This document shows, piece after piece, positions 29,101 through 57,017 of a stretch of DNA of 64,000 nt. A program made the position numbers and the translations under genes. Each line of letters opens with the position of its first letter. The first letter of the stretch is position 1. This DNA comes from Candidatus Buchananbacteria bacterium CG10_big_fil_rev_8_21_14_0_10_33_19 (GTDB lineage Bacteria > Patescibacteriota > Patescibacteriia > 2-01-FULL-39-33): assembly GCA_002773855.1 (NCBI GenBank), contig PEZY01000005.1:122532-186531 (forward strand). The letters are read 5' to 3'. The notes under the pieces are model-generated. The model did no database searches. It was not told the DNA's origin and worked only from the letters and a program-made list of their open reading frames with translations.

Positions 29101-32100
29101 TCTGCTAATTGTTTGCGGTAACTAGCGTCGGCATCAAAAGACAAATAATCAGCGTTTCTTACTTTAACATTATCTGAAGATGGATTAATAGACCCGCGAT
29201 CATTAAACAAAACACAGCCGGAATTATAATCAACTAAACCATTACAACTAGTATAATCCACTTTATTAGACAAGGCATAATATACACCAGCTTGAACCAA
29301 ACTCAATTTAGCATCAACAACGTCTTTGGTTGGTAAATTAACATTAACACTACATGGCAAGCCAGAATTATCCACAATATAAAATCGACCAGTGGCTGAT
29401 TTTGGTGATGCTACTACACTAGCGCCACCAACATTCAAACTTAAATCCGGTGAAACAATAATACCATTACAACTAGGATCAATAGTAATATAAGATTTAT
29501 TAGTCAAAGATTCATCAACAGCTAGTGAATATAGAGTATGGGCTGACAAACTGATTGTTTGGTACCAATTAGTGCCACCATCATTCCAATGATCTGGCAC
29601 AGTATCTTCATCTACATCCTGTGATGTATCGGCATTCAAAATTTCATTTTTATAAACCTCGGTTGATGGATCTATGTATTCGGTACAACTATTTTGATCA
29701 GTTGGACAAGACCCTACCCAATTTTGATAAGTAATAGCTGGGCCTGGGTTTTCATTTGGCCATTCATTTTGACTAGGCAAACCATAACTATTAAACCAAC
29801 CCACTGGTTGTAACTTTTGATCAGAAGAGCCGGTGCCAATGGTTTGTAAATAAGTTACATCACAAGGCTGATTAGTACCCTTCTTATACCACTTAGCCTG
29901 AATCTGACCAGCGTCTGTCCGGTATTCACATAATTTATCTCGTGGATTTTTAAAATAAGAGACGCTTCTACTGCCTACAAATTCTTCACACCACAAAGCA
30001 TTAGCCTGACATAAATCAGTAGCATATCTGTCTGGTTGATTTTTTAGATAAACAGTATTATAGCCAATCACTTCATCCTGATTATTAATAGTTGGTAATC
30101 CTAAAGCCGAACAACCCTTACTATCTGAACCACAAGCGAATTTAGGGTCATTCACCATATAAACATAATTATCATTTGGTACTGTAACTTCTGATTTATC
30201 TCCATCATTAAAAGTGTCGCCAAAATAAGAATTAGAGTTATAAGTATCAATCAATTGTTCGCAACCCACAGCATCAGATCGACACAAATTTTCAAAAGAT
30301 TTCAAAAACCAATTTTGACCACTGCGGTCTCGATATTCCTGACAACCAATCATCTTGCCGGGATTACTTCTGATTGGGTTGAGAGCATCGCCAGTACCAT
30401 ATGGATCGTTAAGATTGTTATCACAAGTAAACGGTGTAAACCAAGAATTTTCAATAGCGTAAACACTTTGAGGCAATTCTTTTAAAAGAATATTATCTAT
30501 GTACACGGTTTTACCGCTAGGTATATTAATTTCAATATTTTGTTCAAAGTTACCAGTATTATTACCCCAATCAATAGTGACTGGGCCTAGTTCATAGCGA
30601 TTCCAATTAATAGTTAACGGTACTGGGATATCAGCTGTTGTGATAACGTCTGGATGTCCAATCATAAATGAACTTTCAGCTGGTGCTTCAGAAAATCTAA
30701 CCGAGCTTAAACTGATATTCTCGTCAGCCTTAGCCCAAAAACTAATCGAATAATTCTTACCTCTTTGAACTAGAACAGTTTTAGTAAATTGTTTTGAGTC
30801 ATTTATTGCATTACTAATAGAATTACCACCCGGATGAGTAGCTTCGCCCACCACAGTACCGCCCTGCCAACTAGAAATACCAGATTCAAAATCAGATAAA
30901 AATATATTTTTAAAACTATTACCTTGATTACCAGTGTATTCTCGACAACCTTTTAAGTTAGCCGAACAAGTGCCACCTTGATTGGGAATCGCCATATAAA
31001 TACACTCATTAAACGAATTCCAATAACCTTGGTTATTTCGACAATCTTGGGCTGCTTCACTGTCGTCATTTTGAGTTTGAGTTCGACGATATGGATGGCA
31101 ACTATTATCAACATAAATCACCCGAGACAATAAACGATAATGAATTGTGCCATCAATGTCATAAAATTCTCGACAATCCGGATTAGAATTTAAATCGGAG
31201 GCCAGACAAGCAGCATAATTTACGTCAGGATCACTACTTGGTGCTGGATCACTACAAACATTTTCACCAGCTAAATTATTTGGATAACTAATATTAGTAC
31301 ACGGAGCACTTGAATTATTGGATTCTTTAAGTTCAAAAACCCTAAGCTGATAACCAGTCGTATCACTACCCTCCCAAGTATAATAAGTAGCTTCATCGTC
31401 ATAAGCATCTGGTTTTTGACAAGTTCGTAGCTGAGTATAATATTCTAAAGCCTCACCACCTCTATCAATTTCATCTAAATTAGTAAATTCATCACAACCA
31501 ACAGCCGCGGCTGAACAAGCTTGAATGGGATCATTATTTATAAACTGTTTATATTTTGACGAAACAAAACTAGTTGGCTCTTGTTTATATACTTGATAGC
31601 CCACACATTCAGCTGGACAAACATCGGCCGAGGTAATAGTGCCTGGCACCGCTGGGTCTCCATTAGTTGGCGTATACAGTTCGCAATTCATTTCATCTTT
31701 AATACAAACACTAGAATAGCTAGAGCAAGCCGGATTACGATTTATAATAACTTGTTGCAAGCTAGTTAAACCAGTTGGCCATTGAATACCAGGGGTTACT
31801 AAATCAGAATCATAACAATTATAATAAGCTGGCGCTTTCTTCAGATAAGCTAATTGATAATCTGGCCGCTGACTAGGATCATAAGAAGTGTAAGCCGAAG
31901 GCAAAACCACTTCTGGCAAAACTTCTTCTAATTTAACGGCGTCAAAATAAACTTCTTTCTTACCTGTACCACCACCTTGTTCGATAGTTAATTTTGGTAT
32001 CACTATCTCGTCAGCTTTATTCCACACAAAACTAGTACTAATTGTAGTCCATTTATACAAATCTGCTTCTTTAAAATATTCTGGAGTAGTATTTATCGTC

Positions 32101-35100
32101 TGACCTCTTAGTCTAATGTAATAACGACCAATTTCTTGGGTATACACTCTAGCCGATAAAACATATTTTTGACCATTAATTAATGTTAGCGGTGATAAAG
32201 AGTTAGAGTTGGCTCCAATATAGGCACAAAAATTATTAGGCGCAGTAAAATCAGCTCGTAAACCAATAGCCTTGGAGCCATCAATACCGGAATTAACCGC
32301 GAATATTTCACAAGAAGTATGATTACCACCTTCAGCTGACCAATGACTTAAATCACCAAAATAATTTTCGAAACTACCATCATTAATTAAGTTACTACCC
32401 AAACCAGCTTTAACTCTAATAAACTGACTGCAACCACCAGCACTAGCATCACAAGTTTGAACATCACGATCAAAATATATTTCTGAATTTGCCTGATCTT
32501 TAGAGCCTAAATTAAGAGCGACATCACCAGTAGAACACGACTCAGGAGCCTCTCTTAAATCAAAATCGTCAAAGAAAACCGTGCCCACTGTCCCCGTGTT
32601 AGTAATTATTCTAATTTCTATCTTATCACCGGCTTGAATATTTTGAGTATTAAATTCCAGATCATATTTCTGCCAATTTTCATTAGGATTACCTATCGAT
32701 TTGTTACCCAATTCCAAAGTCGAAGATAACACTTTAATATCAAAACTACCTACACTAACAGAGCCCCTTAGATAGAAAGATAATTGATATTTTTTATTAG
32801 CTTCAACCCCCGAATCAAACTCTAAAGTAGTTTGTAGTGGATTAGGATTATTAAAACTCAAAGATTCCAAGGAATAGGAGCCAGTTCTCTTGCTAGTATT
32901 AGATCTAAACTGTCTATTATTGTCGTTCTGGTAACTCTCTACCCAAAAACGAGCATCGTAACTGGCACCACCAGTTAATTCAAAGCCACTATTAAATGGA
33001 GTTAAGATATTAACCGAACCCAAACATTTATCTAGCGAACATTCCACTCCACCATCAGGAATAGTGCAAGACTCACTAGAAAAATCACAACCATTAGCCA
33101 AAGTACAAACTTGCGCCATCACCACACCTTTATTTATTGAAGTAGCTGTTTGATCCCATTGATCAACTACTAAACCAGACACCACACAACCACTAGGATT
33201 GGTACAAGTTTTTAAAATTTGTTCACTATCAGTATTCAACCAAGTGCCATCAACAGTATTATAGAAAGTACTATACCACCGACAACCAGCCGACTGAGCA
33301 TCACAATCTCGATAATCTAAAGTATTAGATAAATAAGATCCGGTACTGCCATTTTGTGATTGAAAAGTTTGGCAAGTATTAAAACGAGGTTCACATTTTG
33401 GCGCATTTAAATTCCAAACCTTTCGCTCTTCAGTACAATAACCATAGGCCGTACAATTACCATTTTCATCCTCGCTAACACATTGTTGCTCATCAGCACA
33501 ATATTGTGTCCTCTTAACAGATCCATCTTGAGAGCTGGCCCGATCATTATGAGCGCCGTAACCTTCACGACGACAAAATAATTCTGGTGCTTTTAACACC
33601 CATTGAGGATCAATTAAATTCTCAAAGACTGAACCGTCATTATTAAAAGATTTAACCAAATCACCCAAGGTGTAAGATTTATGCTCATCATGAGCATTGC
33701 TAATGTACCGAGCGGCAATTTCCCAACCCACTGGCACAATTCTATATTTTCTTAAAATAACAATGTTTCTCAAAGAAAAAGATTCTTGAGGATTAACAGT
33801 TGATAGTGCTGGCACAAATTGTCTGTTTAATATTGATTCTGGCAAATCTTTAATTAAAGTCTTCTCTCTAATTAATTTAGACAAAATAGGATCAATCACA
33901 CAATCAGTTGGGCCGGGATTAATTTTGTTGGCCTCAGTACAAGCTGTTAATTTATTTAAAATATTATAAGGACCACCAACAGTTATTTCACTTTCAATTA
34001 AATTTAAAAACCTGGCTTCAGCCCCAATTGAACCTTCAACATATGGTGAGGATTCTGGATTAAGTAAAGACGCAAATCTAGATAAATCTGGCAGATTAAA
34101 ATTATTACCGTTACTATTACCACTAGTAAAGTAACCATCTTTTAAATTTTGCAACAATTGACCAACCAAACTATTTAAAAATGTTTCCACAAAATCCCAA
34201 ACTGTACCAGTAAAAACTGTGTCCTGCTTACCAGCCCGAGACAATGCTTCACGTTGTTGATCTCTAATCATTGTACCTGGTGTCAAAATCCAGCCAGTTA
34301 AACTCTTTAGATCCTTATAACCATTATTAATAGAAGCCTCCAAAGCTGAAACGCCAGTTTCCTTTTTAACCTTATCCATCAAAGACGAGCTAGTCTTTAA
34401 ATAAATACCAATATCGTTTTCACTGGCTTTTAAATAATTACTATACTCCACCGAAAAACTAGCATCGTTAATCGCTGATCGCCAATTATTGACCATGCCC
34501 GTAAAATTACAACTTGGCTTAGCCGGTTGATAACCCCGCAAACTAGTTTTAATCATTAATTCCACGTTAAAATTTGGTCGACATAAATTAACCCCAAATT
34601 CCTTATCAATTTCATCAATAAAAGTTCCCGCCGCATTGTCAGCGGTATTCTTTAGATAAGCACCAATACCTTCGGTGATAAACAATGGCTTTTGCCCCTT
34701 ACCGCCAGAAGCAATCCAAGATGCAGTATCGTAAGCTAATTGCTTGGAAAACACACTCAACATTGATTTCCAGGCTCCAGCCAAAGTGTCTTTCCAAGTT
34801 TGCTTTTCTATGTCTCTTAAATCATCAGCGGCTATTTGTATTGAGCCAGTTTTTGTTATTAATATATTTTGACAATTGTAAAGAGTAATTGTGCTTTGTA
34901 TCTGTGCCACTATAGCTGGCGCACACGTACCAGTGCCATTGACAAACTCACAGGAGTTACTAGCTAATGCTGCTGTAGCAGCATTAGTACAAGCCTCAGC
35001 CGCAGATATCGCCGCCCCAGAGCCAGCACTAGCTTCAGCTGCAGCGTTAAGCAACAAGGCTGTAGCAGCAGGCCCAGTAGCGTTACTATAATTAATATGA

Positions 35101-35159
35101 CCAAAAAATAAAAATATTGGTACTATTAGAAATAAAATTTTAAATCTAAATTCTTTCAT
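26148..35159 (-). CDS. Giant secreted protein (3003 aa): signal peptide, Cys-rich modules and several CBM4/9-like galactose-binding-like domains (ending ...VFFDDFDLRE, ...VYFDAVKLEE, ...VYIDNILLKE)
   Basis: Uninterrupted 9-kb ORF. Hydrophobic N-terminus followed by an A-rich segment. Repeated ~150-aa units ending in the hydrophobic-F/Y-D-D/N-hydrophobic-x-L-x-E signature typical of CBM_4_9-type beta-sandwiches. Very high Cys/Asn/Ser/Thr/Gly content. Confidence 0.65.
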   Translation of the reverse strand: MKEFRFKILFLIVPIFLFFGHINYSNATGPAATALLLNAAAEASAGSGAAISAAEACTNAATAALASNSCEFVNGTGTCAPAIVAQIQSTITLYNCQNILITKTGSIQIAADDLRDIEKQTWKDTLAGAWKSMLSVFSKQLAYDTASWIASGGKGQKPLFITEGIGAYLKNTADNAAGTFIDEIDKEFGVNLCRPNFNVELMIKTSLRGYQPAKPSCNFTGMVNNWRSAINDASFSVEYSNYLKASENDIGIYLKTSSSLMDKVKKETGVSALEASINNGYKDLKSLTGWILTPGTMIRDQQREALSRAGKQDTVFTGTVWDFVETFLNSLVGQLLQNLKDGYFTSGNSNGNNFNLPDLSRFASLLNPESSPYVEGSIGAEARFLNLIESEITVGGPYNILNKLTACTEANKINPGPTDCVIDPILSKLIREKTLIKDLPESILNRQFVPALSTVNPQESFSLRNIVILRKYRIVPVGWEIAARYISNAHDEHKSYTLGDLVKSFNNDGSVFENLIDPQWVLKAPELFCRREGYGAHNDRASSQDGSVKRTQYCADEQQCVSEDENGNCTAYGYCTEERKVWNLNAPKCEPRFNTCQTFQSQNGSTGSYLSNTLDYRDCDAQSAGCRWYSTFYNTVDGTWLNTDSEQILKTCTNPSGCVVSGLVVDQWDQTATSINKGVVMAQVCTLANGCDFSSESCTIPDGGVECSLDKCLGSVNILTPFNSGFELTGGASYDARFWVESYQNDNNRQFRSNTSKRTGSYSLESLSFNNPNPLQTTLEFDSGVEANKKYQLSFYLRGSVSVGSFDIKVLSSTLELGNKSIGNPNENWQKYDLEFNTQNIQAGDKIEIRIITNTGTVGTVFFDDFDLREAPESCSTGDVALNLGSKDQANSEIYFDRDVQTCDASAGGCSQFIRVKAGLGSNLINDGSFENYFGDLSHWSAEGGNHTSCEIFAVNSGIDGSKAIGLRADFTAPNNFCAYIGANSNSLSPLTLINGQKYVLSARVYTQEIGRYYIRLRGQTINTTPEYFKEADLYKWTTISTSFVWNKADEIVIPKLTIEQGGGTGKKEVYFDAVKLEEVLPEVVLPSAYTSYDPSQRPDYQLAYLKKAPAYYNCYDSDLVTPGIQWPTGLTSLQQVIINRNPACSSYSSVCIKDEMNCELYTPTNGDPAVPGTITSADVCPAECVGYQVYKQEPTSFVSSKYKQFINNDPIQACSAAAVGCDEFTNLDEIDRGGEALEYYTQLRTCQKPDAYDDEATYYTWEGSDTTGYQLRVFELKESNNSSAPCTNISYPNNLAGENVCSDPAPSSDPDVNYAACLASDLNSNPDCREFYDIDGTIHYRLLSRVIYVDNSCHPYRRTQTQNDDSEAAQDCRNNQGYWNSFNECIYMAIPNQGGTCSANLKGCREYTGNQGNSFKNIFLSDFESGISSWQGGTVVGEATHPGGNSISNAINDSKQFTKTVLVQRGKNYSISFWAKADENISLSSVRFSEAPAESSFMIGHPDVITTADIPVPLTINWNRYELGPVTIDWGNNTGNFEQNIEINIPSGKTVYIDNILLKELPQSVYAIENSWFTPFTCDNNLNDPYGTGDALNPIRSNPGKMIGCQEYRDRSGQNWFLKSFENLCRSDAVGCEQLIDTYNSNSYFGDTFNDGDKSEVTVPNDNYVYMVNDPKFACGSDSKGCSALGLPTINNQDEVIGYNTVYLKNQPDRYATDLCQANALWCEEFVGSRSVSYFKNPRDKLCEYRTDAGQIQAKWYKKGTNQPCDVTYLQTIGTGSSDQKLQPVGWFNSYGLPSQNEWPNENPGPAITYQNWVGSCPTDQNSCTEYIDPSTEVYKNEILNADTSQDVDEDTVPDHWNDGGTNWYQTISLSAHTLYSLAVDESLTNKSYITIDPSCNGIIVSPDLSLNVGGASVVASPKSATGRFYIVDNSGLPCSVNVNLPTKDVVDAKLSLVQAGVYYALSNKVDYTSCNGLVDYNSGCVLFNDRGSINPSSDNVKVRNADYLSFDADASYRKQLADNDQKPIPPEFVTAPDTGDSNVILKVQPDRACYNWLYCTTYEKDDPDNVDPIYGNNDRCLNLGLCASVDENGVCTNFILKSNLVTNEEYTLKDVNKTGYTSVGYKFLDNQKVTGYYPYYEMFQHGDSADVTNGSFESVVGSSAEPIGWSPVSPGLDTATYKSETSGWQDYEFVVAKDVIGSPDGSRYLIVNSFYEALSEEIDVFSDSTYILSGWINSAGLNYSDKSKIIKSQIQYRQHNKNGGWGNWEIKSELSLDSGLPWTKKIYEFTSLPNTDKIQIKLKNYINLSNLSNPASACANANNKSSCNVCDDNNKLTPCELGGVALFDDISLKPVLEVSDSTVPTEKYVSRTCRIYPAEDSLSCRYLEGNNLFYGNYGYCLLVDPANSKQCLQWWPVDQLEGEVLNEVGGYNDRVPLDYCVDKKSFNVSFSEFGYALTLSSDAKEVVAGFVDTNTGTQMNFSSFKIKDDFRPLFRYPYVKEIKTRVSGIGYTKDNTIYAMIPVNLTFKYDTTKKEWGSWGAIPVCGKLIDAGDFGVAVCFAVELNWDDATKNYGEVIAGLTATYNSKFSNGTLAFGPLMGLKIIDDSQSDSITGSGVSDPIPDLPGDILGAAWFVRSTAEADVIGITMNVSGNFDVGYCDNLVRVVNTSGENKAYANRVAKGSGYINIDRNAKPDAPLSEWIDGVDLIDGSYYYYDPFDYNKFLDAATQNKEYQSSDYQPFGALVSPPGSSNPSNWSSREGIYNTPLLYEPPRLGGFQAPYQARMGELHTQKGLEQLFAQSYGEWWWRWNVCGDTAAQTPTSPCQTPDTERGGSYIEREDLTTSYLTVPLNICNEATRDASSNQPCHINPLVKEIKINNVNSTEPVTPVINRGVGLAKLAFSTQIDPDQLPITAYTIKWGDGEHSKVSGVSLRNRTNIENPFLLYHLFDFWKVKSVTPTTCNAGATNIPCCTKDSCKIKVDIKVYDNWNYYNTSEDSIRLDVNKN

Positions 35160-46587: not shown

Positions 46588-47160
46588 TTAACTAACTCTT
46601 TCACAATATTCTTCGGTTTCCGTATTGACGCGAATAATATCGCCTTCCTTAACAAATAATGGCACCTGAATACTGACTCCAGTTTCCAGTTCAGCAGTTT
46701 TAGTAACCCGACCTTGAGCCGAATTCCCTTTTACCCCTTCTGGTGCTGACACTACTTTTAATTCTACTTTGGTTGGCAAAGATAATGACACTGGACTGCC
46801 AGCAAAATATAAGACATCTACTCTATCACCATCTTTCATATAATTAGACAGATAACCGACAATTTCTTTATCCAAACTAAACTGTTCAAAATCATCACTA
46901 GCCATAAAATAAAAATTATCGCCATCATTATAAAGATATTCCGCTTTTTTTCTCTGTAAATCAGCTTCTTCTACTTTATCACCCGGATGAAAATTAACTT
47001 CGGCTACTTTACCGTTTAACAAATTTTTCATTTTAGTTTGCATCACTGGCTTACGCTGTTGCATTCTAACAAAATTTGCCTCAACTACTGTATAAGGACT
47101 GCCTTCATAAATAATATTAGCCCCTTTTTTAATGCCATTTAAATTTGGAATAATAGCCAT
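46588..47160 (-). CDS. efp: Elongation factor P. Start placed at MAIIPNLNG; the ORF-track upstream extension is not supported.
   Basis: N-terminal KOW-like region GANIIYEGSPYTVVEANFVRMQQRKPVMQTKMKNLLNG, ~190 aa. Confidence 0.8.
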   Translation of the reverse strand: MAIIPNLNGIKKGANIIYEGSPYTVVEANFVRMQQRKPVMQTKMKNLLNGKVAEVNFHPGDKVEEADLQRKKAEYLYNDGDNFYFMASDDFEQFSLDKEIVGYLSNYMKDGDRVDVLYFAGSPVSLSLPTKVELKVVSAPEGVKGNSAQGRVTKTAELETGVSIQVPLFVKEGDIIRVNTETEEYCERVS

Positions 47161-47257
47161 AAAATATTTTAAAAAATTTAAGAGTTTAAAGGTTAAAAAT
47201 AGAAAGCCAATCATAAATTAATTTATGACTTTCTACTTTTTAACTTTCAATTTGAAT

Positions 47258-47506
47258 TTATTTGGTCACAAAAGGCAGGATAGCCATAATTCTAGCTCGT
47301 TTAATTGCTTGAGCTAGTTGTCTTTGGTGTTTGGAACAAACACCACTTCGCTTTCGTGGCACGATCTTGGAGTAAGAAGAAATAAATCTTCTTAGCAATT
47401 GTTGATTTTTATAATCAACGTGATCGACGTTATTAACACAAAAATAACAATATCGTTCTTTTTGCATTAAGTCATTTTTTTTATTATTAGTCATTTTCTT
47501 AATCAT
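47258..47506 (-). CDS. rpsR: 30S ribosomal protein S18
   Basis: CYFC... RFISSYSKIVPRKRSGVCSKHQRQLAQAIKRARIMAILPF. Confidence 0.85.
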   Translation of the reverse strand: MIKKMTNNKKNDLMQKERYCYFCVNNVDHVDYKNQQLLRRFISSYSKIVPRKRSGVCSKHQRQLAQAIKRARIMAILPFVTK

Positions 47507-47515
47507 TTAAAATCT

Positions 47516-47977
<462 letters not shown>

Positions 47978-48011
47978 TTAATTTATAAAATTCCCTCTTG
48001 ATATTTGCTAA

Positions 48012-48473
48012 TTAAATTATAGCATCATCACTTAAAATTTCATCAAGCTTATCATCTAAATTTTTCATATCAGCTTTCTTAGATTCTCTTGGTTTAGAAG
48101 CTCTTTTTTCTTCTACTTTTGGCTTAGATTCCTCAGCTGCTCTCGCTCTTTGTCTTTTTTGTCTCTCAATTTCTTCTGGCGTAATTTTTGGTTTAGTAAT
48201 AATTTGAGATCTCAAAATTTCTTTATCCAATCTAAAATCATTACTAATAGTGGCAATTAAAGTTGGGTCTTCCAACTCAAATTCAGCAACTACATAATAA
48301 CCATGATTAACTTTATCAATTGGATAAGCCAATTTCTTTTTACCTAAAAATTCAGTAAAACCTAAAACACCACCATATTTTTGTAATAGTGTATTTACCT
48401 TGTCTTTAATTGTTTTTAGTTCATCTTCAGTGTACTGATTAGAAACAATATAAAGTAATTCGTAATTTTTCAT
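48012..48473 (-). CDS. rpsF: 30S ribosomal protein S6 (with extended K/E-rich C-terminus)
   Basis: MKNYELLYIVSNQYTEDEL... Canonical rpsF-ssb-rpsR gene order. Confidence 0.8.
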   Translation of the reverse strand: MKNYELLYIVSNQYTEDELKTIKDKVNTLLQKYGGVLGFTEFLGKKKLAYPIDKVNHGYYVVAEFELEDPTLIATISNDFRLDKEILRSQIITKPKITPEEIERQKRQRARAAEESKPKVEEKRASKPRESKKADMKNLDDKLDEILSDDAII

Positions 48474-48682
48474 TGATTATGTATTTATTTGTAAAAAAAC
48501 AACCCTAAGGCACGCCTTAGAGTTTATTTGAACTGAACTCATAATTTGGCGCCCCTTCTTCTTGTTCGACTCCCAAGAAGATTATTCGCTGTAAAGCAAA
48601 TGTAAAATGGAAAAGGCTTCCTTTTGGATTGAATTTGTTGTAAGCTGATATTAACATATAAATATAAAAAAAGCAAGAGCCT

Positions 48683-49789
48683 ATGAAAGCAGAATATATA
48701 TTCATCCTTGGTAACAATACTGAGCTATCAGTCGCCGAAATCAAGGCTTTATACCCAGAAATTGAAATCACCAACAAAACCAACCTCTACTTAAGTGGCA
48801 AAATAACTGATTTTGACTGTACTAATGCCATCAAAAAATTAGGTGGCACTATTAAAATCGGCCGAGTTATTAGTCAAAATATCGATAAAGACCTAATAAT
48901 CAAGGAAATAGTCGCCAAAAAATCTGAATCCAAAATAAACTATGGTCTTAGTTTTTATGACACCAAACCTACTAAACTAGGTATGGAGATCAAAAAAGAC
49001 TTAAAAGACCAGGGTATTTCCAGCCGTTTAGTGACCAGTCAAGAAAAAGTCTTATCATCGGTAATTGTCGCCAAAAATAAAGTCTTAGAATTTTTAATTC
49101 TCCCTAATATGTTAGCCATGACCTGTGCTATTCAAGATTTTGAAGAATACGGCAAAAGGGACTATGGTCGTCCCAAAAGTGACGCTCATTCTGGTATGTT
49201 ACCACCCAAACTAGCCAAGATTATGATTAATCTATCAGGCACCACTACTTCAGATACTATTTTAGACCCTTTTTGTGGTTCTGGCACAATTTTAACCGAA
49301 GCCTTGTCACTGGGCTATAAAAATGTTATTGGCAGTGACCTGTCAGCTAAGGCTTGTGAAGACACCAAAGATAATATTGACTGGCTAAACAACGAATACA
49401 ATATTACCGATGCTAAATTTCAAATTTATAATATTAATGCCGATAGTCTAAGCAATAAAATAAAACCCGAATCAGTGAACGCCATTATTACCGAGCCATA
49501 TTTAGGTCCCACTATCCGTGATGATGAAAAAGAAAGTCATATTTTTAAAATCATGGCCGGCTTAGAAAATATTTATCTTAAAGCTTTTGAACAATTTAAA
49601 ATTATTCTTAAGACAAACAGTTTAGTAGTGATTGTTATCCCCTTTTGGCACTTAAGTGATCGTGAATTTAGATTACGGATTGAAAACAAAGTGGCCAACC
49701 TAGGTTTTAGGCGACTAGACCGTGGCACTCTTATTTATGCCAGAAGTAATCAAAAAGTTTGGCGTCAAATCCAAATTTGGCAAAAATAA
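48683..49789 (+). CDS. SAM-dependent RNA methyltransferase-like (UPF0020/THUMP-associated class; N2-guanine-MTase-like)
   Basis: SAM-binding ILDPFCGSGTILTEA and catalytic TEPYLGP (N/D-P-P-Y-like) motifs. 368 aa. Confidence 0.5.
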   Translation: MKAEYIFILGNNTELSVAEIKALYPEIEITNKTNLYLSGKITDFDCTNAIKKLGGTIKIGRVISQNIDKDLIIKEIVAKKSESKINYGLSFYDTKPTKLGMEIKKDLKDQGISSRLVTSQEKVLSSVIVAKNKVLEFLILPNMLAMTCAIQDFEEYGKRDYGRPKSDAHSGMLPPKLAKIMINLSGTTTSDTILDPFCGSGTILTEALSLGYKNVIGSDLSAKACEDTKDNIDWLNNEYNITDAKFQIYNINADSLSNKIKPESVNAIITEPYLGPTIRDDEKESHIFKIMAGLENIYLKAFEQFKIILKTNSLVVIVIPFWHLSDREFRLRIENKVANLGFRRLDRGTLIYARSNQKVWRQIQIWQK

Positions 49790-49818
49790 AAGCGGGAATA
49801 TTTCATCCCGCGAAAATT
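49790..49818. terminator. Bidirectional terminator hairpin GCGGGA-ATATTTCA-TCCCGC between convergent genes
   Basis: 6-bp GC stem flanked by A/T runs on both strands. Confidence 0.45.
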
Positions 49819-49828
49819 AAAGCTTCAA

Positions 49829-50566
49829 CTAAACTATAACTGAAGCTGTTTGATTGGACTCCTGCCAAGTCCGAAAGTAGCTGGGCTGAACCGATGGTTG
49901 CCAAAACCTCTCCATCAATTCACCAACCACCGCATACAAAAAATGCTTGGCTCGCTGAGCGGCTTCTTTGGTTTTAATTTCATCAGCCGTAATACTATAG
50001 GCGAAACAAACAGCCTGAAACTGAGCGCCAGCCCCAGAAAACACTTGAGCCTCGCCATCTTCAACAGCCCCCGAAACATCATTATTAAAACGCTGAACGC
50101 GATACATGATAGTATAACGACCTTCTGCTGACATTAAAATATCGACCATCGAATAGACACTGGCATAACCACGGCCCAATATAACAGTGGCCTGATAATA
50201 GTCCAGGCCACCTAATCTTTTGATCGAAGCCTCTTCCAGTTCTGGCAATAGTTGAGTGGGCGGTATTTTACGACGGATACAGTAAGTACCGTCTTCTTGT
50301 GGCACATTGCCAACCTTACCTTCCACAACTTTAACAACTTGTTCAAAAAATTCCATTTCAGATAACTTGGGAGCTACAATATAACATCTAATGCCATCAT
50401 CAAAAAACAAAGTATTAATATTTTCAATATTTTCCAAAACATCAAGAGCCAAATCAACGCAATCACCAGTCAAAATAATCTGATGAGTACCACTATAAAA
50501 ATAAGCAGTCACATCATCGCCATTAAAATAAAATCCATTGTCAATTTTTTCTAATTCCTTCAACAT
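49829..50566 (-). CDS. Uncharacterised protein, paralogue A (245 aa) of the GC-rich islet gene 53452..54264
   Basis: Conserved blocks shared with paralogue B: QIILTGDCVDLALDVLENIEN vs QLVLTGECVKPGLEALDAIDG; ILGRGYASVYSMVDIL vs ILGIGFSNRFSMVEIL; RYTIMYRVQRF vs RTFIYRVQKF. RBS GGAG upstream. Confidence 0.6.
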   Translation of the reverse strand: MLKELEKIDNGFYFNGDDVTAYFYSGTHQIILTGDCVDLALDVLENIENINTLFFDDGIRCYIVAPKLSEMEFFEQVVKVVEGKVGNVPQEDGTYCIRRKIPPTQLLPELEEASIKRLGGLDYYQATVILGRGYASVYSMVDILMSAEGRYTIMYRVQRFNNDVSGAVEDGEAQVFSGAGAQFQAVCFAYSITADEIKTKEAAQRAKHFLYAVVGELMERFWQPSVQPSYFRTWQESNQTASVIV

Positions 50567-50670
50567 ACTACATCTCCTGTTTTGCGATTTTTACAACCGC
50601 AGCCTCTTGCTATTAGCGCTACCACGCACTACTAGTTGTGTAAGGTACAAGCCGTTTTGTACGACTTAGT

Positions 50671-50699
50671 ATCTTAGCATAAATAACTATTTTTGTCAA
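50671..50699 (-). promoter_or_regulatory. Sigma70-like promoter for paralogue A (TTGACA-17nt-TAAGAT) followed by a ~100-nt leader
   Basis: Consensus -35 with 17-nt spacer, read on the minus strand. Leader 50567-50665 is unusually GC-rich and hairpin-rich for this genome. Confidence 0.45.
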
Positions 50700-50713
50700 T
50701 AATCAGCAAAAAT

Positions 50714-51262
50714 CTAATTTTCTTGCTTCAACAGCAAATCCATTAATTTTAGAAAAATTTTAGTATTCATCTCCACATCTGACATAGCCCGATGAGCGTC
50801 TTTATGTTCAAAACCAAAGTAACTAGCTACGTTGGTTAAAGTATTACTGGGCAAAGATAATAACTTTCTAGACAATTCTAAAGTATCAATTATCTTGTTT
50901 TCTGGTTGTTTTAAGCCCATTCTTTGACAATAATAAACAATAAAAAGCCAATCAAAACCACGAATATTATGCCCAACCACAATAGAATCACCAATAAATT
51001 CTAAAAAATTTTTAATCACCACATCAATTCCTTGGCCGTTAACTAATAGATATATTTCATTTAAACCATGAACTTTTTCGGCTTCTGGCGGAATCGGTTT
51101 AGTCGGCTGAGCCAACATTTCAAACCGATTAATCACCTCTTGACCTTTTAACTTCAGAGCGGCAATTTCCAAAACATCGTCTTTCTCAGGCTTTAAGCCA
51201 GAAGTTTCTACGTCAAAAACCGTAAACTCCGTCTCTAAAAATTTTTGGTATTTTTCATCCAT
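50714..51262 (-). CDS. DEDDh 3'-5' exonuclease (DnaQ/epsilon-like)
   Basis: Exo I FTVFDVETSGL, Exo II VVGHNIRGFDWLF, Exo III HRAMSDVEM. 182 aa. Confidence 0.75.
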   Translation of the reverse strand: MDEKYQKFLETEFTVFDVETSGLKPEKDDVLEIAALKLKGQEVINRFEMLAQPTKPIPPEAEKVHGLNEIYLLVNGQGIDVVIKNFLEFIGDSIVVGHNIRGFDWLFIVYYCQRMGLKQPENKIIDTLELSRKLLSLPSNTLTNVASYFGFEHKDAHRAMSDVEMNTKIFLKLMDLLLKQEN

Positions 51263-51404
51263 AACTTATATATTTATTTATCTATAATTTAGATAAACAT
51301 CTCCATCAATTTTAGGCTAATCTGGAATTTTAATCAACCACCATTGAAAAAATCTTAGCTTTCTGTTATAATGTCTAGGTTATATTAATCTTAATTTTTA
51401 ACAA

Positions 51405-52454
51405 ATGGCTCTCTCAGTTGGCATTGTCGGATTACCGAATGTTGGTAAATCCACTCTTTTTAAAGCTTTAACTAAAAAACAAGTTGACGCTTCTAATTAC
51501 CCATTTTGTACCATTGATCCCAACGTTGGGGTGGTTGCTGTACCAGACGAACGTCTAGATCAATTAGCTAAAGTTTCTGGCTCTCAAAAAATACTACCCA
51601 CCGCCATTGAATTTGTCGATATTGCTGGGCTAGTGGCTGGCGCTCACAAAGGTGAGGGCTTAGGTAATAAATTTCTAGCTAATATCAGAAACACTGATGC
51701 TATTGTTCAAGTTCTTAGACATTTCACTGATAAAGATGTGGCCCACGTTCATGGTAAAGTTGACCCAGAATCTGACAAAGGCACAATTAATTTAGAATTA
51801 ATTTTTGCCGATTTATCTAGTGTCGAAAATCGACTAAACAAAAATGAAAAATTAGCCAGAAGCAATGACAAAGAAGCCAAAGAGTTGCAACCAATTTTAT
51901 TAAAACTAAAACAAGGTTTGGAAAATGAACAATTGGCTATAAATATAATTACTGATGAAGAGGAAAAGGCCTTGGTTAAAGATTTAAATCTCTTGACTAT
52001 GAAGCCAATGATTTATGTTTTAAATGTAGATGAAGACAATGTTTTTCAAGAAACTGATTACATTGCCATTTCTGCTAAAATCGAAGCTGACCTATCAGAA
52101 TTGTCATATGACGAAGCTCAAGAATATTTAACCGAATTAAAACTAGACTCTTCGGGCTTAGATAAATTAATCAGAAAAGCTTATGAGACATTAAACTTGA
52201 TTACTTTTTTTACTTCTGGCCCCCAAGAAGCCCGAGCCTGGACCATTAAAAAAGGTTCCAAGGCGCCACAAGCCGCTGGTGTTATTCATACCGATTTTGA
52301 AAAAGGCTTTATTAGAGCCGAAGTAATTAATTGGCAAGATTTTATTGAGTGTGGTGGTGAAGTCAAAGCCAAAGAAAAAGGTTTAATTAGATTAGAGGGT
52401 AAGGATTATGTCATGGCTGATGGTGATGTTTGCCATTTTAGATTTGCTACTTAA
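51405..52454 (+). CDS. ychF: Ribosome-binding ATPase YchF (Obg-family, C-terminal TGS domain)
   Basis: G1 GIVGLPNVGKST, conserved TIDPNVG, TGS-like C-terminus. 349 aa. Confidence 0.85.
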   Translation: MALSVGIVGLPNVGKSTLFKALTKKQVDASNYPFCTIDPNVGVVAVPDERLDQLAKVSGSQKILPTAIEFVDIAGLVAGAHKGEGLGNKFLANIRNTDAIVQVLRHFTDKDVAHVHGKVDPESDKGTINLELIFADLSSVENRLNKNEKLARSNDKEAKELQPILLKLKQGLENEQLAINIITDEEEKALVKDLNLLTMKPMIYVLNVDEDNVFQETDYIAISAKIEADLSELSYDEAQEYLTELKLDSSGLDKLIRKAYETLNLITFFTSGPQEARAWTIKKGSKAPQAAGVIHTDFEKGFIRAEVINWQDFIECGGEVKAKEKGLIRLEGKDYVMADGDVCHFRFAT

Positions 52455-52615
52455 GTTAAATATATGGATGATGATGCCAAATTAAAAATAATACTTTATA
52501 CCATTGCCATACTTTCGGCAATAGCGGTTATTGGTGTTTGGGAAAATTTTATTAAGCCAATTGCTATATTTTTTACTGAATATATTAGTGTAGTTTAGGT
52601 TGATTTTATTATTTA

Positions 52616-52648
52616 CTAACAACGTTACTAGCGTTGTTTTTTTTATTT
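52616..52648 (+). terminator. Rho-independent terminator after ychF (CTAACAACG-TTACTAG-CGTTGTTTTTTTTT)
   Basis: Stem-loop plus a 9-T run. Confidence 0.6.
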
Positions 52649-52959
52649 GATATATTTCTTTTATCCTATTTCTTAAAAAGAATATTTCTCTTATTAATTT
52701 TTATTACTAATTATCTTTAATAATAACCTTCTCTCCTACTTCTTTAGAAGAAGTAGGACAAGAATCGCCAGTGAACTCCTTCGTCTATAAAATACCCTTT
52801 AAACTTTATTGGTTTCCAAACTCATTAATTTCATCTATTTATATTGGTCGAAATTAATTCAGACATGCGAAAACTTGGCTTATATAAATAAGCCAACATA
52901 AAGTTTAAAAGGCATTTTATGAAGACTCAGTCGTTATACTGGCCCTATTTATTAATATA

Positions 52960-53137
52960 TTTTATAAATAAATTCGAGCATATGAAAATTTGGATTAAAC
53001 GGAAAGTAAAATGAGTTACAAAGTTTTTACTGTTTGAGGTGATAGCCGAGTTTAAAAACTTTGTTAGAATTTTACTTGAAGTGCCAAATTTTCATCGCTC
53101 GGAGCTTTTGGTTACTTTTGGCAATACAAAAGTAACA
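52960..53137 (+). repeat. ~178-bp structured direct repeat, copy 1 (left boundary of the GC-rich islet). Nested inverted repeats ATGAAAATTTGG/CCAAATTTTCAT and ACAAAGTTTTTA/TAAAAACTTTGT, and a 3' hairpin GTTACTTTTGGCAATACAAAAGTAAC.
   Basis: Near-identical (about 5 mismatches) to 54398-54576. Internal palindromic arms seen directly. Confidence 0.85.
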
Positions 53138-53320
53138 GAAAAAGGAAGTAAAAAAGTGACGAAAAGAGATTTTACTTTCAAAAATACTAATAACGTATTG
53201 TGGATAAAATAACCAACTTATTTACTTACCACACTATATTTATAGTAAAATAGACAAATAAAAAATATCAAAAAAATATCCAAAATAAGCCAAAAAATAA
53301 TAAATATCCACCCCTACCAC

Positions 53321-53349
53321 TTGACAAAATTTGATAGGTGTGCTATAGT
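53321..53349 (+). promoter_or_regulatory. Consensus sigma70 promoter (TTGACA-17nt-TATAGT) driving the GC-rich gene, followed by a ~100-nt leader
   Basis: Perfect -35, 17-nt spacer, near-consensus -10. ATG at 53452 preceded by GGAG. Confidence 0.55.
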
Positions 53350-53451
53350 TTAACTATCGCACAACGCGAGACCTATACTTTATTGGTGTGGGTCGTACTT
53401 TTTAGCAAGACCAAGGGAATTACCCCACGGTCAAAATTGGAGATTTCTAAA

Positions 53452-54264
53452 ATGAAAAAGCGTATTGAATCCAGATTTACGACGGAAATGCAGAATGTCC
53501 CGGCCCAGCTCGTCCTCACCGGCGAGTGTGTCAAACCCGGCCTTGAGGCGCTAGACGCCATCGATGGCCTCGACGATTTCACCGCCAGAGTGAGGGTGAA
53601 GGGTGATGGCTCCAAAGCCGTCATTACAGTGCCGGGATTGAATATCGAGCGGCTAGTGGCCGAAGTGGCCGCCAAAATCGAGATCAATCTGTCCGACATC
53701 CCCGAAAAAGATGGCGGGATCTGGCTCAACAAAGCCGTCCCCCAGTGCATCCCGGTCAAAGACCAGGACATCAAGATTGTCGAAGAAGGTGGTTTCACCT
53801 ACTGGGCAGTTCGCATGATCCTGGGCATCGGGTTCAGTAACCGGTTCTCGATGGTCGAAATCCTGTTGCCCACCGAAAGACGGCAGGAGGCCAGGACCTT
53901 CATCTATCGGGTTCAAAAGTTTCTGAACAAGATGGATGGAGTTATGCCCGATAGCAGAGCACAGACCTTCGGCAACCAGAATACGGCCGTGGCTTTCGCC
54001 TTCGGACAGAGCGACCCACAGAACTTGGAAGGCATGGCCAAAGTGGCCAAGACAATGCTCTACAAGTTTGTTGGTGAAGCGACTGTTTGCCTCTACAGCA
54101 AGAGGGACTCAGCGGCCAAAACCGGTCGGCAAATGCACTTCGCCACCTCGGTATCGGTAGAGCAATCGATGGCGACCCTGGCGGACGCCTTCGACCTGGC
54201 CGACTTCTCTTTTGAGGAAGCCATAGCCGAAGACACCGCGGTCACCGAGACCGCCGCCATCTAA
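53452..54264 (+). CDS. Uncharacterised protein, paralogue B (270 aa), encoded in ~57% GC DNA. Start at MKKRIESR; the ORF-track start at 53338 lies within the promoter.
   Basis: Strong compositional anomaly (GCC/CTG/GGC-rich codons) against the ~33% GC background. Homologous to 49829..50566. Own promoter, RBS and terminators. Confidence 0.6.
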   Translation: MKKRIESRFTTEMQNVPAQLVLTGECVKPGLEALDAIDGLDDFTARVRVKGDGSKAVITVPGLNIERLVAEVAAKIEINLSDIPEKDGGIWLNKAVPQCIPVKDQDIKIVEEGGFTYWAVRMILGIGFSNRFSMVEILLPTERRQEARTFIYRVQKFLNKMDGVMPDSRAQTFGNQNTAVAFAFGQSDPQNLEGMAKVAKTMLYKFVGEATVCLYSKRDSAAKTGRQMHFATSVSVEQSMATLADAFDLADFSFEEAIAEDTAVTETAAI

Positions 54265-54285
54265 GGCACACACCCACCCACACCC

Positions 54286-54315
54286 GAGGGCGGATCACAA
54301 CGTTGATCCGCCCTC
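54286..54315 (+). terminator. GC-rich 12-bp hairpin GAGGGCGGATCA-CAACGT-TGATCCGCCCTC immediately after the islet CDS
   Basis: Perfect inverted repeat. No strong T-run, so it may act with the next hairpin. Confidence 0.45.
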
Positions 54316-54339
54316 AAATTATTTATACTTACTTTTACT

Positions 54340-54363
54340 CAGCACTACTGTGCTGTTTTTTTA
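54340..54363 (+). terminator. Rho-independent terminator CAGCAC-TACT-GTGCTGTTTTTTT
   Basis: 6-bp stem plus a 7-T run. Confidence 0.55.
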
Positions 54364-54397
54364 TTTAATATTTTTTAATGTTTGAATTTTTATAATA

Positions 54398-54576
54398 AAT
54401 ATATAAATAAATTCGAGCATATGAAAATTTGGATTAAACGGAAAGTAAAATGAGTTACAAAGTTTTTATTGTTTGAGGCTTTAGCCGAGTTTAAAAACTT
54501 TGTTAGAATTTTACTTGGAGTGCCAAATTTTCATCGCTCGGAGCTTTTGGTTACTTTTGGCGGTACAAAAGTAACA
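54398..54576 (+). repeat. ~178-bp structured direct repeat, copy 2 (right boundary of the GC-rich islet)
   Basis: See copy 1. Followed by additional related hairpin units: GGTACTTTTTCTAAAAAAGTACC at ~54606-54628 and GTTACTTTTTGTTATCAAAAAGTGAC at ~54658-54684. Confidence 0.85.
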
Positions 54577-54842
54577 AAGAAAAATTACTGTCGCGATTTT
54601 TGCGGTACTTTTTCTAAAAAAGTACCAATGTGATTTAGAATATAATCATGGCTCGTAGTTTTTGTGTTACTTTTTGTTATCAAAAAGTGACGAGAAGAAT
54701 AATTATCAAAGAAAATTAGATTGCTTCGTCCCTCGCAATGACGATATAGGTCAAGAGATTGCTTCGTGCCCATGCCTACAACAGGCAGGCTCGCAATGAC
54801 AGAGATATTAAAATCTACAACAGTCAGATTCACAATAACAAA

Positions 54843-54876
54843 TGTATAGAGATATCTCCAGAGATATCTCTATACA
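54843..54876. repeat. 34-bp near-perfect palindrome TGTATAGAGATATCTC-CA-GAGATATCTCTATACA (contains nested GATATC palindromes) followed by TTTT
   Basis: 16-bp perfect arms. Location between the islet and the folD 3' end. Confidence 0.8.
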
Positions 54877-54892
54877 TTTTAAAAACCACAAA

Positions 54893-54928
54893 CAAAAAAA
54901 ACAACAGAATTATTTCTATTGTTTTTTT
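54893..54928 (-). terminator. Terminator for folD (AACAACAGAA-TTA-TTTCTATTGTT flanked by A/T runs), possibly bidirectional
   Basis: Imperfect 10-bp stem plus a T-run on the minus-strand sense, directly after the folD stop. Confidence 0.45.
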
Positions 54929-54935
54929 ATTCAAA

Positions 54936-55757
54936 TTAATTTAGTTTCAAATTTATCTCTAAAACATTTTTCAGTAAACAAGCCACCGTCAGTGGCCCCA
55001 CTCCACCTGGCACCGGTGACACGAAAGCCGCCACCTCTTTTACGCTATCATCAGCATCTCCCACAATCTGACCATTTAATTTATTTATACCAACGTCAAT
55101 TATAATTGCCTCTTTTTTAATCATTTCTTTCTGCAGTGAATTCGGCTGTCCCAAAGCAATAATCACAATATCGTAATCAGCACAATTATCTGGAATTTTA
55201 GAATCACGACTAACACTAGCTATACCAAAAACAGATAAATACTTATCCAACTTGGCGGTATAAATATCACTATTAGCTATCACTAAAGTTTTTTTACTAG
55301 TCAAATCTTCATTAGTATATTTAAGCAACTCCATAATGGCGGCAATAGTTGGTGGCGTCACCTGTTCACTAGCACCACTAGAAAAAAAGCCATCAACATC
55401 CTTGTCCTTAGATATTAAATCAATTATGGCTTGAGTTTCAAAACCTTTTGGTAGTGGCAACTGTAGTAGGATGCCATCAACATCAATATCTTTATTTAAA
55501 AATTCAATTAGCTCGGCTAATTCTTTTTCACTAATATTATCCGGACATAGATATTTATGAAAATTAATACCCACTTCCAAACAAGCTTTTTCTTTACGCT
55601 TAATATAAGACACTGAAGCCTCATTGTCACCCACTAGTACCACAGCCAAACCGGGCTTTTTATTTAAAGTAAATATCTTTTTAGCTAAATCTGATTTTAT
55701 TTTATCGGCCAATTCTTGACCATTTAATATTACAGCTGACATAATTTTATTTAACAC
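54936..55757 (-). CDS. folD: Bifunctional methylenetetrahydrofolate dehydrogenase/cyclohydrolase FolD
   Basis: PGGVGPLTVACLL and the NAD(P)-binding region. 273 aa. Confidence 0.85.
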   Translation of the reverse strand: MLNKIMSAVILNGQELADKIKSDLAKKIFTLNKKPGLAVVLVGDNEASVSYIKRKEKACLEVGINFHKYLCPDNISEKELAELIEFLNKDIDVDGILLQLPLPKGFETQAIIDLISKDKDVDGFFSSGASEQVTPPTIAAIMELLKYTNEDLTSKKTLVIANSDIYTAKLDKYLSVFGIASVSRDSKIPDNCADYDIVIIALGQPNSLQKEMIKKEAIIIDVGINKLNGQIVGDADDSVKEVAAFVSPVPGGVGPLTVACLLKNVLEINLKLN

Positions 55758-56985
55758 TATAGATAGGAAATTTCTTAGTTAATTTATTTACCAATGTTTT
55801 AATTTCCTGTTTTAATTTTATATTATTTGGATCTTTTAAAATAGCGGCAATCCAATGACCGATAATCATAATTTCTTTTTCGCCCATTCCACGAGTCGTT
55901 AAAGCCGGTGTCCCAATTCTAATTCCCGACGGATGAAACGGTGTGGCTGGATCATAGGGAATCATATTAGCATTAGTGTAAATACTAGCCTCGGCCAAGG
56001 CTTCGGCTCCCACTTTACCAGAAATATTTAGTGGCCGACAATCTACTAATACCAAATGATTTTCTGTACTATCAGCTATCAATTTAATACCATTATCCAT
56101 CAACACTTTTGCCAATATTTCAGCATTTACCACGGTTTGCTTTTGATCTTTTTTAAATTTATCGGTAGTGGCCTCAGCAAAAGCGATGGCTTTAGCCGCA
56201 ATAACATTTTCCAGTGGTCCACCCTGAAGTCCTGGAAAAACCGCTTTATCTATGTCCTTACTTAGACTAGATTTACAAATTATTATGGCACTTCTAGGTC
56301 CGCGCAAAGTTTTATGAGTGGTAGTGGTCACCACATCGGCCTCAGGAAATGGTGATGGATGAACGCCGCCAATTACTAGTCCGGCAATATGAGAAATATC
56401 GGCCAAGTGATAAGCACCAACTTTCTTAGCAATTTGTGAAATCTTTTTAAAATTTATTTTCTGAGTGTAAGCCGTCGCTCCCGAGACAATCATCTTGGGT
56501 TTTTCCCGCAAAGCTATGCGCTCAATTTCAGCATAATCAAATTTATTGGTTTTAGGATCAACACTATAATGAGCAAAATTAAAAAGCTTGCCAGAAAAAT
56601 TAACTGGTGAACCATGACTTAAATGTCCGCCCGCTCCCAAATCTAAAGCCAAAATCTTATCACCGGGTTTTAGTAATCCCAAATAAACAGCCATGTTAGC
56701 TGATGAACCCGAATGAGGTTGCACATTAACCTGCCATTTCTGATCAGATAAGCCAAACATTTCAAGAGCTAAATTTTGAGCTGTGATTTCAATTTGATCA
56801 ATAAATTCATTGCCAGTGTAATACCGCTTCCCAGGATATCCTTCGCTGTATTTATTAGATAATGGTGTGCCCATAGCCTCAAGTACATCTAAACTGGCAT
56901 AATTTTCACTAGCAATCATAACCAAGCCGTCTTGTTGACGCTTGGTTTCTTGATTAATTAATTTTTGGATGGATTTTTTATTCAT
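55747..56985 (-). CDS. glyA: Serine hydroxymethyltransferase
   Basis: GYPGKRYYTGNEFIDQIE and PLP-site TTTHKTLRGPRSAII. 412 aa. Confidence 0.9.
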   Translation of the reverse strand: MNKKSIQKLINQETKRQQDGLVMIASENYASLDVLEAMGTPLSNKYSEGYPGKRYYTGNEFIDQIEITAQNLALEMFGLSDQKWQVNVQPHSGSSANMAVYLGLLKPGDKILALDLGAGGHLSHGSPVNFSGKLFNFAHYSVDPKTNKFDYAEIERIALREKPKMIVSGATAYTQKINFKKISQIAKKVGAYHLADISHIAGLVIGGVHPSPFPEADVVTTTTHKTLRGPRSAIIICKSSLSKDIDKAVFPGLQGGPLENVIAAKAIAFAEATTDKFKKDQKQTVVNAEILAKVLMDNGIKLIADSTENHLVLVDCRPLNISGKVGAEALAEASIYTNANMIPYDPATPFHPSGIRIGTPALTTRGMGEKEIMIIGHWIAAILKDPNNIKLKQEIKTLVNKLTKKFPIYSVK

Positions 56986-57017
56986 TTGTTTATATTATAT
57001 CAAACAGTGACATTAAT

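Follow-up and report, generated by a model that had tools for sequence, protein, structure and literature searches.

Two paralogous orphan genes of a Candidatus Buchananbacteria genome lie in monocistronic cassettes with conserved structured leader RNAs

In bacteria, 5′-terminal leaders that stabilise the mRNA are known from the ompA 5′ untranslated region (UTR) of Escherichia coli and from the aprE and ermC leaders of Bacillus subtilis. Loci in which variable genes are held between conserved flanks are also known, examples being the gene replacement loci of flagellins, pilins and S-layer proteins. Here we describe a locus that may be compared with both. It lies in a stretch of 64,000 nucleotides (nt) from Candidatus Buchananbacteria bacterium CG10_big_fil_rev_8_21_14_0_10_33_19 (contig PEZY01000005.1, positions 122,532 to 186,531), which is called the window below and to whose first letter all positions refer. 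The host is a groundwater bacterium with a tiny, AT-rich genome, and the GC content of the window is 34.1%. The locus comprises two open reading frames (ORFs), A (49829..50566, minus strand, 245 aa) and B (53452..54264, plus strand, 270 aa), which encode paralogous proteins; the orphan family to which the two belong is very small and evolves fast. In our preferred reading, the A and B cassettes would be conserved high-expression units in which the 5′-terminal hairpins either lend stability to the mRNA or are bound by a shared factor; we put the probability of this reading at about 0.5.

Each of the two genes forms a self-contained cassette made up of an upstream box, a promoter, a three-hairpin leader of ~100 nt, an A-rich linker in which a strong Shine-Dalgarno (SD) sequence lies, and one or two intrinsic terminators. 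An initial annotation of this DNA, made from the sequence without database searches, had proposed that each gene has its own TTGACA-17-TAxxxT promoter, and both promoters were found in a consensus scan: TTGACA-17-TAAGAT in the case of A (50671..50699, minus strand) and TTGACA-17-TATAGT in the case of B (53321..53349, plus strand), each with a TG extended −10 element. The spacer of the A promoter, TTATTTATG(A/C), was kept among orthologues. The 29 nt of the B promoter were identical to the promoter of a gene of a third type, C-type, in the related locus L001, where the flanks differ, and nearly identical, spacer included, to those in L010 and L012. Both cassettes are monocistronic, with near-consensus promoters, strong SD sequences at correct spacing and intrinsic terminators. 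The terminator of A (49792..49811, minus strand) is located between A and the convergent methyltransferase gene. B is followed by two terminators on the plus strand, the first (54286..54315) with a 12-bp stem, GAGGGCGGATC..GATCCGCCCTC, that was kept 3′ of B- and C-type genes elsewhere, and the second (54340..54362) consisting of CAGCAC..GTGCTG and T7.

The upstream box of B, TCCAAAATAAGCCA (53279..53292, plus strand), corresponds to the consensus CTAAAAT(A/T)AGCCA, which was located ~30-45 nt 5′ of the −35 hexamer, as read by eye from the sequences. The box was common to B-type, C-type, two-domain and some A-type cassettes and was present in L001, L005, L010, L012, L024, and L025. It was absent or degenerate before the A promoter of the window, where the stop codon of an RNase T gene lies a few nt from the −35 hexamer. 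We regard the box as a candidate for a shared transcription-factor or UP-type element. A promoter that is nearly of the B-type including its spacer (ATTGACAAAATTTGTTAGGTGTGATATAAT) was also observed on a phage contig (L019:10301-10326), between the terminase and portal genes and without a leader; it probably represents convergence on an optimal extended −10 promoter.

The initial annotation had further described a hairpin-rich leader of ~100 nt in front of each gene, and this description was borne out by folding and by comparison with other genomes. The B-type leader (53350..53451, plus strand) had a folding z score of −4.75 against dinucleotide shuffles and the A-type leader (50567..50670, minus strand) one of −2.54. 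In leader B, the hairpin P1 (53357-53369) is an invariant UCGC/GCGA stem, P2 (53370-53394) is a helix of 7-11 bp in all five sequences, and in P3 (53409-53432) an AA internal loop lies between an outer helix of 4 bp and an inner GGG(A)/(U)CCC helix; all three hairpins and the SD sequence GGAG (53439-53442), which is preceded by an AAAAUU linker, are on the plus strand. The B orthologues of L010 and L012 share this layout of P1, P2, P3, linker and SD sequence. When folded alone, all five distinct B/C-type leaders adopted exactly this set of three hairpins, with z scores between −3.35 and −5.33. The sequences were only 56-79% identical in P2, yet P2 was paired in every one of them, its position 2 being AU, GC or CG, and the outer helix of P3 showed AU/GC and CG/UA swaps. 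Across the five sequences, 77% of the cells were paired, compared to 27-49% when the partners were slid, and six pairs were changed on both sides, with 7-38 of 500 shuffles reaching the observed values; the alignment used for these pair counts was model-derived and retains one-base register errors. The model built for the B-type, R1, scored 81-103 bits on the B/C-type leaders.

The A-type leader showed a comparable organisation on the minus strand, with a first hairpin P1 (50648-50668), a P2 core AGCGC..GCGCU (50615-50630), P3 (50583-50601) and the SD sequence AGGAG (50574-50578). In the seven aligned A-type leaders the order was P1, a single-stranded GUACCUU(U)AA, P2, P3 and an AAAAC-GGAGG end. 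Here 89.9% of the cells were paired, compared to 26-50% after sliding, and five pairs were changed on both sides. The compensatory changes were pronounced in P3, where both sides were changed in four of six pairs (GCGGUU/AACCGC, GCGAC/GUCGC, GUGACG/CGUCAC). Judged by these comparisons, which comprise small samples of five and seven sequences, the leaders are conserved structured RNAs whose helices are kept by compensatory changes.

The covariance model R2, which was derived from the A-type leaders, matched the B leader of the window at its exact coordinates (19.4 bits, E 0.018 in 132 kb), and it also matched the leader of the two-module gene of L025 (E 0.011) and the leader of the divergent L009 (E 6e-4). 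The aligned parts were P1, the UACUUUA stretch and the AAAAYUGGAG end. That R2 finds the B leader at the right place indicates that the A-type and B-type leaders are distantly related. Such a link between the leaders of the two paralogues had been proposed initially on the basis of the words GTCGTAC and TAGCAAGA. Both words are in fact present in the two leaders, but they do not serve as evidence of homology: they occurred in about 10-14% of shuffles and are compatible with chance, they lie in different structural elements, and they are not kept in orthologues. The kinship thus stands on model R2 and not on the word matches. Neither R1 nor R2 detected further leader copies in the window.

The C-type genes form a third family (~275 aa, 57-61% GC, with a K/A/P-rich C-terminal tail) and were located immediately upstream of an A-type gene in three genomes (L001:1971-2816; L006:283-1107, which equals L017:1144-1968; and L029:1-396); a tblastn search of the window for a C-type gene gave no match. 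They carry the B-type promoter, the B-type leader (93-95 bits with R1) and the B-type terminator GAGGGC(A/G)GA(T/C)C..GCCCTC. Thus, the expression frame is kept and the cargo is exchanged: the frame is conserved between genomes at the nucleotide level, and the ORF within it is hypervariable and in sister genomes swapped for the unrelated GC-rich C-type ORF. The possibility that the C-type proteins are remote homologues of A and B was rejected in view of hhalign probabilities of 0.04-1.4%. A common C-terminal docking motif (T/A)L(G/A)(D/E)xF in the tails of B and C was likewise rejected, as its local alignment was not above shuffles (P 0.02-0.85).

The start of P1 was located 7-8 nt after the −10 hexamer, corresponding to the predicted positions +1 to +3, in 11 of 12 leaders. 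A first hairpin 0-4 nt from the predicted transcription start would have the geometry of 5′-terminal stabiliser hairpins. P3 ends 6-8 nt before the SD sequence, for which no sequestering helix with a conserved partner was found in the 12 leaders; the mean unpaired probability of the SD sequence ranged from 0.25 to 0.98 without a pattern. Within the leader there was no conserved terminator, and no alternative (antiterminator) pairing was kept. Given an SD sequence that is not sequestered, the lack of conserved termination, and the place of P1 at the predicted 5′ end, the leader would most likely act constitutively, as a translation-competent 5′-terminal mRNA stabiliser. The invariant loop and linker bases may in addition be bound by a factor common to all cassettes, and the leader together with a GC-rich body and twin terminators would result in a long-lived, strongly expressed mRNA.

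Several observations weigh against this reading. For a pure stabiliser, structure would suffice, whereas here the sequence itself is conserved in P1 (UCGC/GCGA), in the AAGGGA of P3 and in GCGCACAUU. The 5′-terminal place of P1 depends on a start site that is itself predicted from the promoter sequence. The number of leaders is small, with five distinct B/C-type and seven to eight A-type sequences, and since on most measures 2-38 of 500 shuffles reached the observed pairing values, the control is only moderately convincing. A contribution of the coding region to mRNA structure was compared by synonymous-codon shuffles, in which the ORFs of the B/C-type had folding z scores of −2.8 to −8.2 and control genes of −2.1 to −3.4. 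These values are suggestive in the case of some B/C-type genes. B of the window had a z score of −2.8, which is within the control range, and selection for mRNA structure in this gene is therefore unproven.

The conservation of sequence in P1, AAGGGA and GCGCACAUU points to specific recognition, and for this reason we retained as a serious alternative, with a probability well below even, that the leaders are true regulatory RNAs. They would then either bind a trans-acting protein, which may be the encoded protein itself under an autogenous control like that of ribosomal-protein leaders, or form a new riboswitch that acts on translation or stability upon a signal. In agreement with this alternative, sequence is kept at unpaired and loop positions as well as in the invariant P1, structure is kept with compensatory changes, and the conservation of promoter spacer and upstream box across cassettes suggests co-regulation. 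Also in its favour, P2 together with GUACUUUUU was flagged as terminator-like in the window, and a U-rich tract follows P2 in L010 as well. Against it, this tract is missing in L012, L001 and L006, where its position is occupied by GCACAUU. The three hairpins are independent and do not form a multi-helix junction, and a conserved helix sequestering the SD sequence is lacking. An Rfam scan of both leaders, which the initial annotation had called for, also spoke against a described element, as Rfam 15 gave nothing in 50567-50670 or 53350-53451 even at E≤10 in an E-value scan of 47000-57000, and the scan of the whole window at gathering thresholds gave three tRNAs only. A riboswitch or attenuator, as initially considered plausible, thus found no support in Rfam, in a conserved leader terminator or in consistent SD sequestration. 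Nor is the leader specific to this protein family, because the same B-type leader precedes the unrelated C-type family. The use of one leader for unrelated proteins makes regulation by the encoded product less probable than regulation by a shared factor. The acidic character of the proteins (pI 4.6-5.5) would also be unusual for RNA binders.

The proteins encoded by A and B were 32% identical over 197 aa (BLASTP, E 8e-29), and the conserved blocks listed in the initial annotation lie inside this alignment, so that the two are paralogues as proposed. Their assignment to an unrecognised family also held. Searches of Pfam, NCBIfam, PHROGs, PADLOC and PDB sequences, with curated thresholds or a threshold of 0.001 for profiles, gave no match to A or B, and a structure search of BFVD gave nothing at E≤0.001; the structure models were confident. 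A word-indexed search of 5.8 billion clusters retrieved 12 relatives of A and, in the case of B, only B itself; the two of the 12 relatives whose source was named were proteins from metagenome-assembled genomes of Falkowbacteria and Buchananbacteria, which belong to the Candidate Phyla Radiation (CPR). The best database match of A was a hypothetical protein of Candidatus Falkowbacteria bacterium (NCBI; Patescibacteria/Parcubacteria group). When 1.84 billion representatives (1.84e9) were searched exhaustively with an HMMER profile, 15 proteins were found in total. All members whose source could be traced came from CPR contigs of the Parcubacteria group. Orthologues of B are the proteins P0016 (53% identity) and P0019 (39%). 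Throughout the family the ORFs were intact, with 230-410 aa, and some relatives of 350-410 aa contain the C-terminal module in duplicate. Public gene calls start B at Met13; the start at 53452 is supported by the N-termini of orthologues and by the structure model, in which the N-terminal strand is confidently predicted.

The AlphaFold2 models had a pLDDT (predicted local distance difference test) of 89.8 for A and of 85.4 overall for B, the core of which was above 93 and residues 223-270 of which form a disordered acidic tail. The predicted topology is common to both proteins: an N-terminal beta-alpha-beta-beta-alpha-beta unit (ferredoxin-like) is followed by a C-terminal beta-meander with long helices, which in A carries the motifs LGRGYG..YS and YRVQRF. 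The predicted N-terminal domain resembles small domains of the ferredoxin-like beta-alpha-beta-beta-alpha-beta type, such as PII, ACT, uS10, S6 and de novo ferredoxin folds. Similarity to an eIF4E-type curved beta-sheet backed by helices scored under the usual homology level at 6-14% identity and gave no evidence of membership. In an alignment of 21 family sequences the invariant or near-invariant positions were two Gly, a third near-invariant Gly, two Ala, and one Pro, Arg and Tyr each. As none of the residues invariant across the family looks catalytic, the role of the protein is probably one in binding or structure and not that of an enzyme. Most members are acidic (pI 4.6-5.7), and three are basic.

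The members of this family diverge much faster than the adjacent genes. Between L008 and the window the neighbours were 89-100% identical, compared to 59% in the case of A. In L010, ychF was 88%, glyA 86% and B 53% identical to the window, and in L012 ychF was 88% and B 39% identical. A second property of the genes is their base composition. The initial annotation had stated a difference of ~25 points of GC between A and B; the actual values are 40.4% and 55.6%, a difference of 15 points. GC at third codon positions (GC3) was 0.71 in B and 0.34 in A, compared to 0.263 ± 0.076 for 45 long ORFs of the window. In all genomes examined, B-type, C-type and two-module genes had 56-61% GC in backgrounds of 32-43% GC, with a GC3 of 0.63-0.78 where measured, and A-type genes were 3-12 GC points over background. 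As diverged B orthologues hold the same GC excess together with AT-rich native expression signals, the excess appears to be maintained.

None of the libraries searched describes a reusable conserved expression frame in combination with a leader RNA that Rfam lacks, a cargo that is hypervariable and a GC3 anomaly that is maintained. A far-reaching proposal, which we consider tentative and rather doubtful as a whole, is that bacteria of the Parcubacteria-group CPR have in this locus a conserved platform dedicated to expression, in which interchangeable, fast-diversifying GC-rich ORFs of the A, B, two-domain and C types are expressed in a frame of box, promoter, undescribed leader and twin terminators. 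The locus would then serve an episymbiont in an arms race or as a source of variation, and its leader would be a new class of regulatory RNA bound by a shared factor. Its GC excess would be kept up actively, through selection for mRNA stability or through biased gene conversion driven by recombination.

An origin of B as a recently acquired foreign gene, forming a GC-rich island between ychF and folD whose insertion is marked by direct repeats, is improbable. The GC3 of B, the sharp edges of the GC island, the lack of any homologue besides B itself in the word-based search, and the two 181-nt direct repeats of 95% identity that bracket the cassette would be expected for such an insertion. However, the orthologues in L010 and L012 occupy the same locus and show the same GC excess with AT-rich promoter, leader and terminator, so that the excess has persisted over their divergence, and the traceable members all lie on CPR-type contigs in this slot. 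A tblastn search for phage and plasmid relatives gave no match, and leader and terminator had no match in viral contigs. Recent horizontal acquisition is therefore unlikely. A phage or plasmid origin was likewise rejected; scans of viral contigs for the promoter, the terminator and the P3 core gave chance matches only (the L019 phage promoter without leader, and coding DNA in L020-L023). No integrase or transposase was found in 47-57 kb. It is very improbable that the B region is mainly a large structured non-coding RNA with an incidental ORF. In favour of this idea, the region stands out as a GC island from an AT-rich genome, its promoter and terminators are strong, and the ORF RNA had a folding z score of −5.05 (against 20 dinucleotide shuffles). 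Against it, B is similar to A and to its orthologues at the amino-acid level with intact ORFs, its predicted core is confident, its SD sequence is correctly spaced, its excess structure is like that of ordinary genes after synonymous-codon shuffles, and Rfam gave no match.

The left repeat (52963..53143, plus strand) contains a long imperfect palindrome and a second hairpin; the right repeat (54402..54582, plus strand) is likewise a long imperfect palindrome, and both repeats have sharp edges. The hairpin of the repeat had a folding z score of −7.16. Relatives of the repeat were found as intergenic pieces at this locus in L017, L001 and L005; the occurrence of this repeat family in intergenic DNA of sister genomes also argues against a mark of foreign insertion. 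With a palindrome and multiple intergenic copies, the 181-nt flanks look like palindromic repeats of the miniature inverted-repeat transposable element (MITE) or repetitive extragenic palindrome (REP) type, and through them the cassette could be lost, duplicated or exchanged. In the interval from the right repeat to folD, short repeats were found clustered (54690-54880); these were GATTGCTTCG...CTCGCAATGAC units as well as CTACAACAG.. units in tandem, and a perfect palindrome with 19-nt arms (54840-54879) accompanied them. Units of the type '..GGGATGACAG', like those of the cluster, were also present upstream of the L001 and L005 cassettes and as a spurious 125-aa ORF in L025.

The gene order of the region begins with rpsR, ssb and rpsF (minus strand), a UPF0020/N6_N4 methyltransferase gene (plus) and A (minus). 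It continues with a gene for an RNase T-like DEDDh exonuclease (minus), ychF (plus) and a conserved 44-aa ORF (plus), and ends with B (plus) followed by folD and glyA (minus). As stated in the initial annotation, A is directly downstream of the exonuclease gene (50714-51262, minus strand), at a distance of 147 nt. The 44-aa hydrophobic small ORF (52466-52600, plus strand), which begins with MDDDAKLKIILY, lies directly 3′ of ychF; it was also called in L011, L012 and L025-L027, with identities of 66% in L008 and 49% in L012.

All family members that could be placed, including the distant two-module forms P0018 and P0021, occupy one slot. One border of this slot is formed by ychF, by the 44-aa ORF or by RNase T, and the other by the methyltransferase gene with rpsF-ssb-rpsR-efp after it. 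The occupant is an A-type gene adjoining the methyltransferase gene in the window and L008, a B-type gene at the methyltransferase-side position of A in L012 and L010, and a two-module form 3′ of ychF in L024-L027. The segment RNase T-ychF-44-aa ORF-B is inverted in the window relative to L010, and its two ends carry A and B in inverted orientation to each other. In L025, a relative with 43% GC, the same locus contains two further GC-rich orphan genes on the minus strand, one encoding 239 aa (L025:3392-4111, 57% GC) with its own TTGACA promoter and one encoding 93 aa (L025:2155-2436, 61% GC); GC-rich orphan genes may be a wider trait of this region. The contig CAYIBK010000004.1 (L015/L001) is titled 'uncultured Gammaproteobacteria bacterium', and it shows CPR-type synteny with A-type and C-type cassettes; its label is probably a misclassification. 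The largest ORF of the window is a single one of 3003 aa at 26148-35159 on the minus strand.

Much of bacterial diversity belongs to the CPR, whose lineage-specific genes are for the most part without known function. The locus offers a testable unit in this respect, with a leader outside Rfam that shows covariation and one frame that is used for unrelated ORFs. These ORFs evolve several-fold faster than their neighbours, and their GC3 of 0.63-0.78, compared to a typical value of ~0.26 in their genomes, bears on how base composition is kept up within a genome; it may be explained by selection for mRNA stability, by biased gene conversion or by repeated replacement. The expression signals suggest that the proteins are abundant; if this holds, they would be candidates for a major uncharacterised cell component of Parcubacteria.

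Among the known systems, the ribosomal-protein leaders of Rfam resemble the A/B leaders in being short, structured and lineage-specific with covarying helices and in occurring in a ribosomal-protein neighbourhood; in contrast to them, the A/B leaders have no Rfam match, and their products are acidic orphans that evolve much faster than the adjacent ribosomal proteins. The stabiliser leaders of ompA, aprE and ermC would be matched by the hairpin near the predicted 5′ end, the additional hairpins, the single-stranded A-rich stretch, the strong SD sequence, the monocistronic organisation and the strong promoter. The A/B leaders differ from these in that they show no sequence kinship to them, are conserved in the sequence of loops and P1, and are reused for unrelated ORFs. 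Unlike flagellin, pilin and S-layer loci, the A/B locus encodes no signal peptide or surface-protein feature, and neither silent cassettes nor, in the window region examined, a nearby recombinase were seen. By analogy, however, the locus may be likened to such gene replacement loci, since frame and neighbours are kept, the ORF is divergent or non-homologous among close relatives, and repeats flank one of the cassettes.

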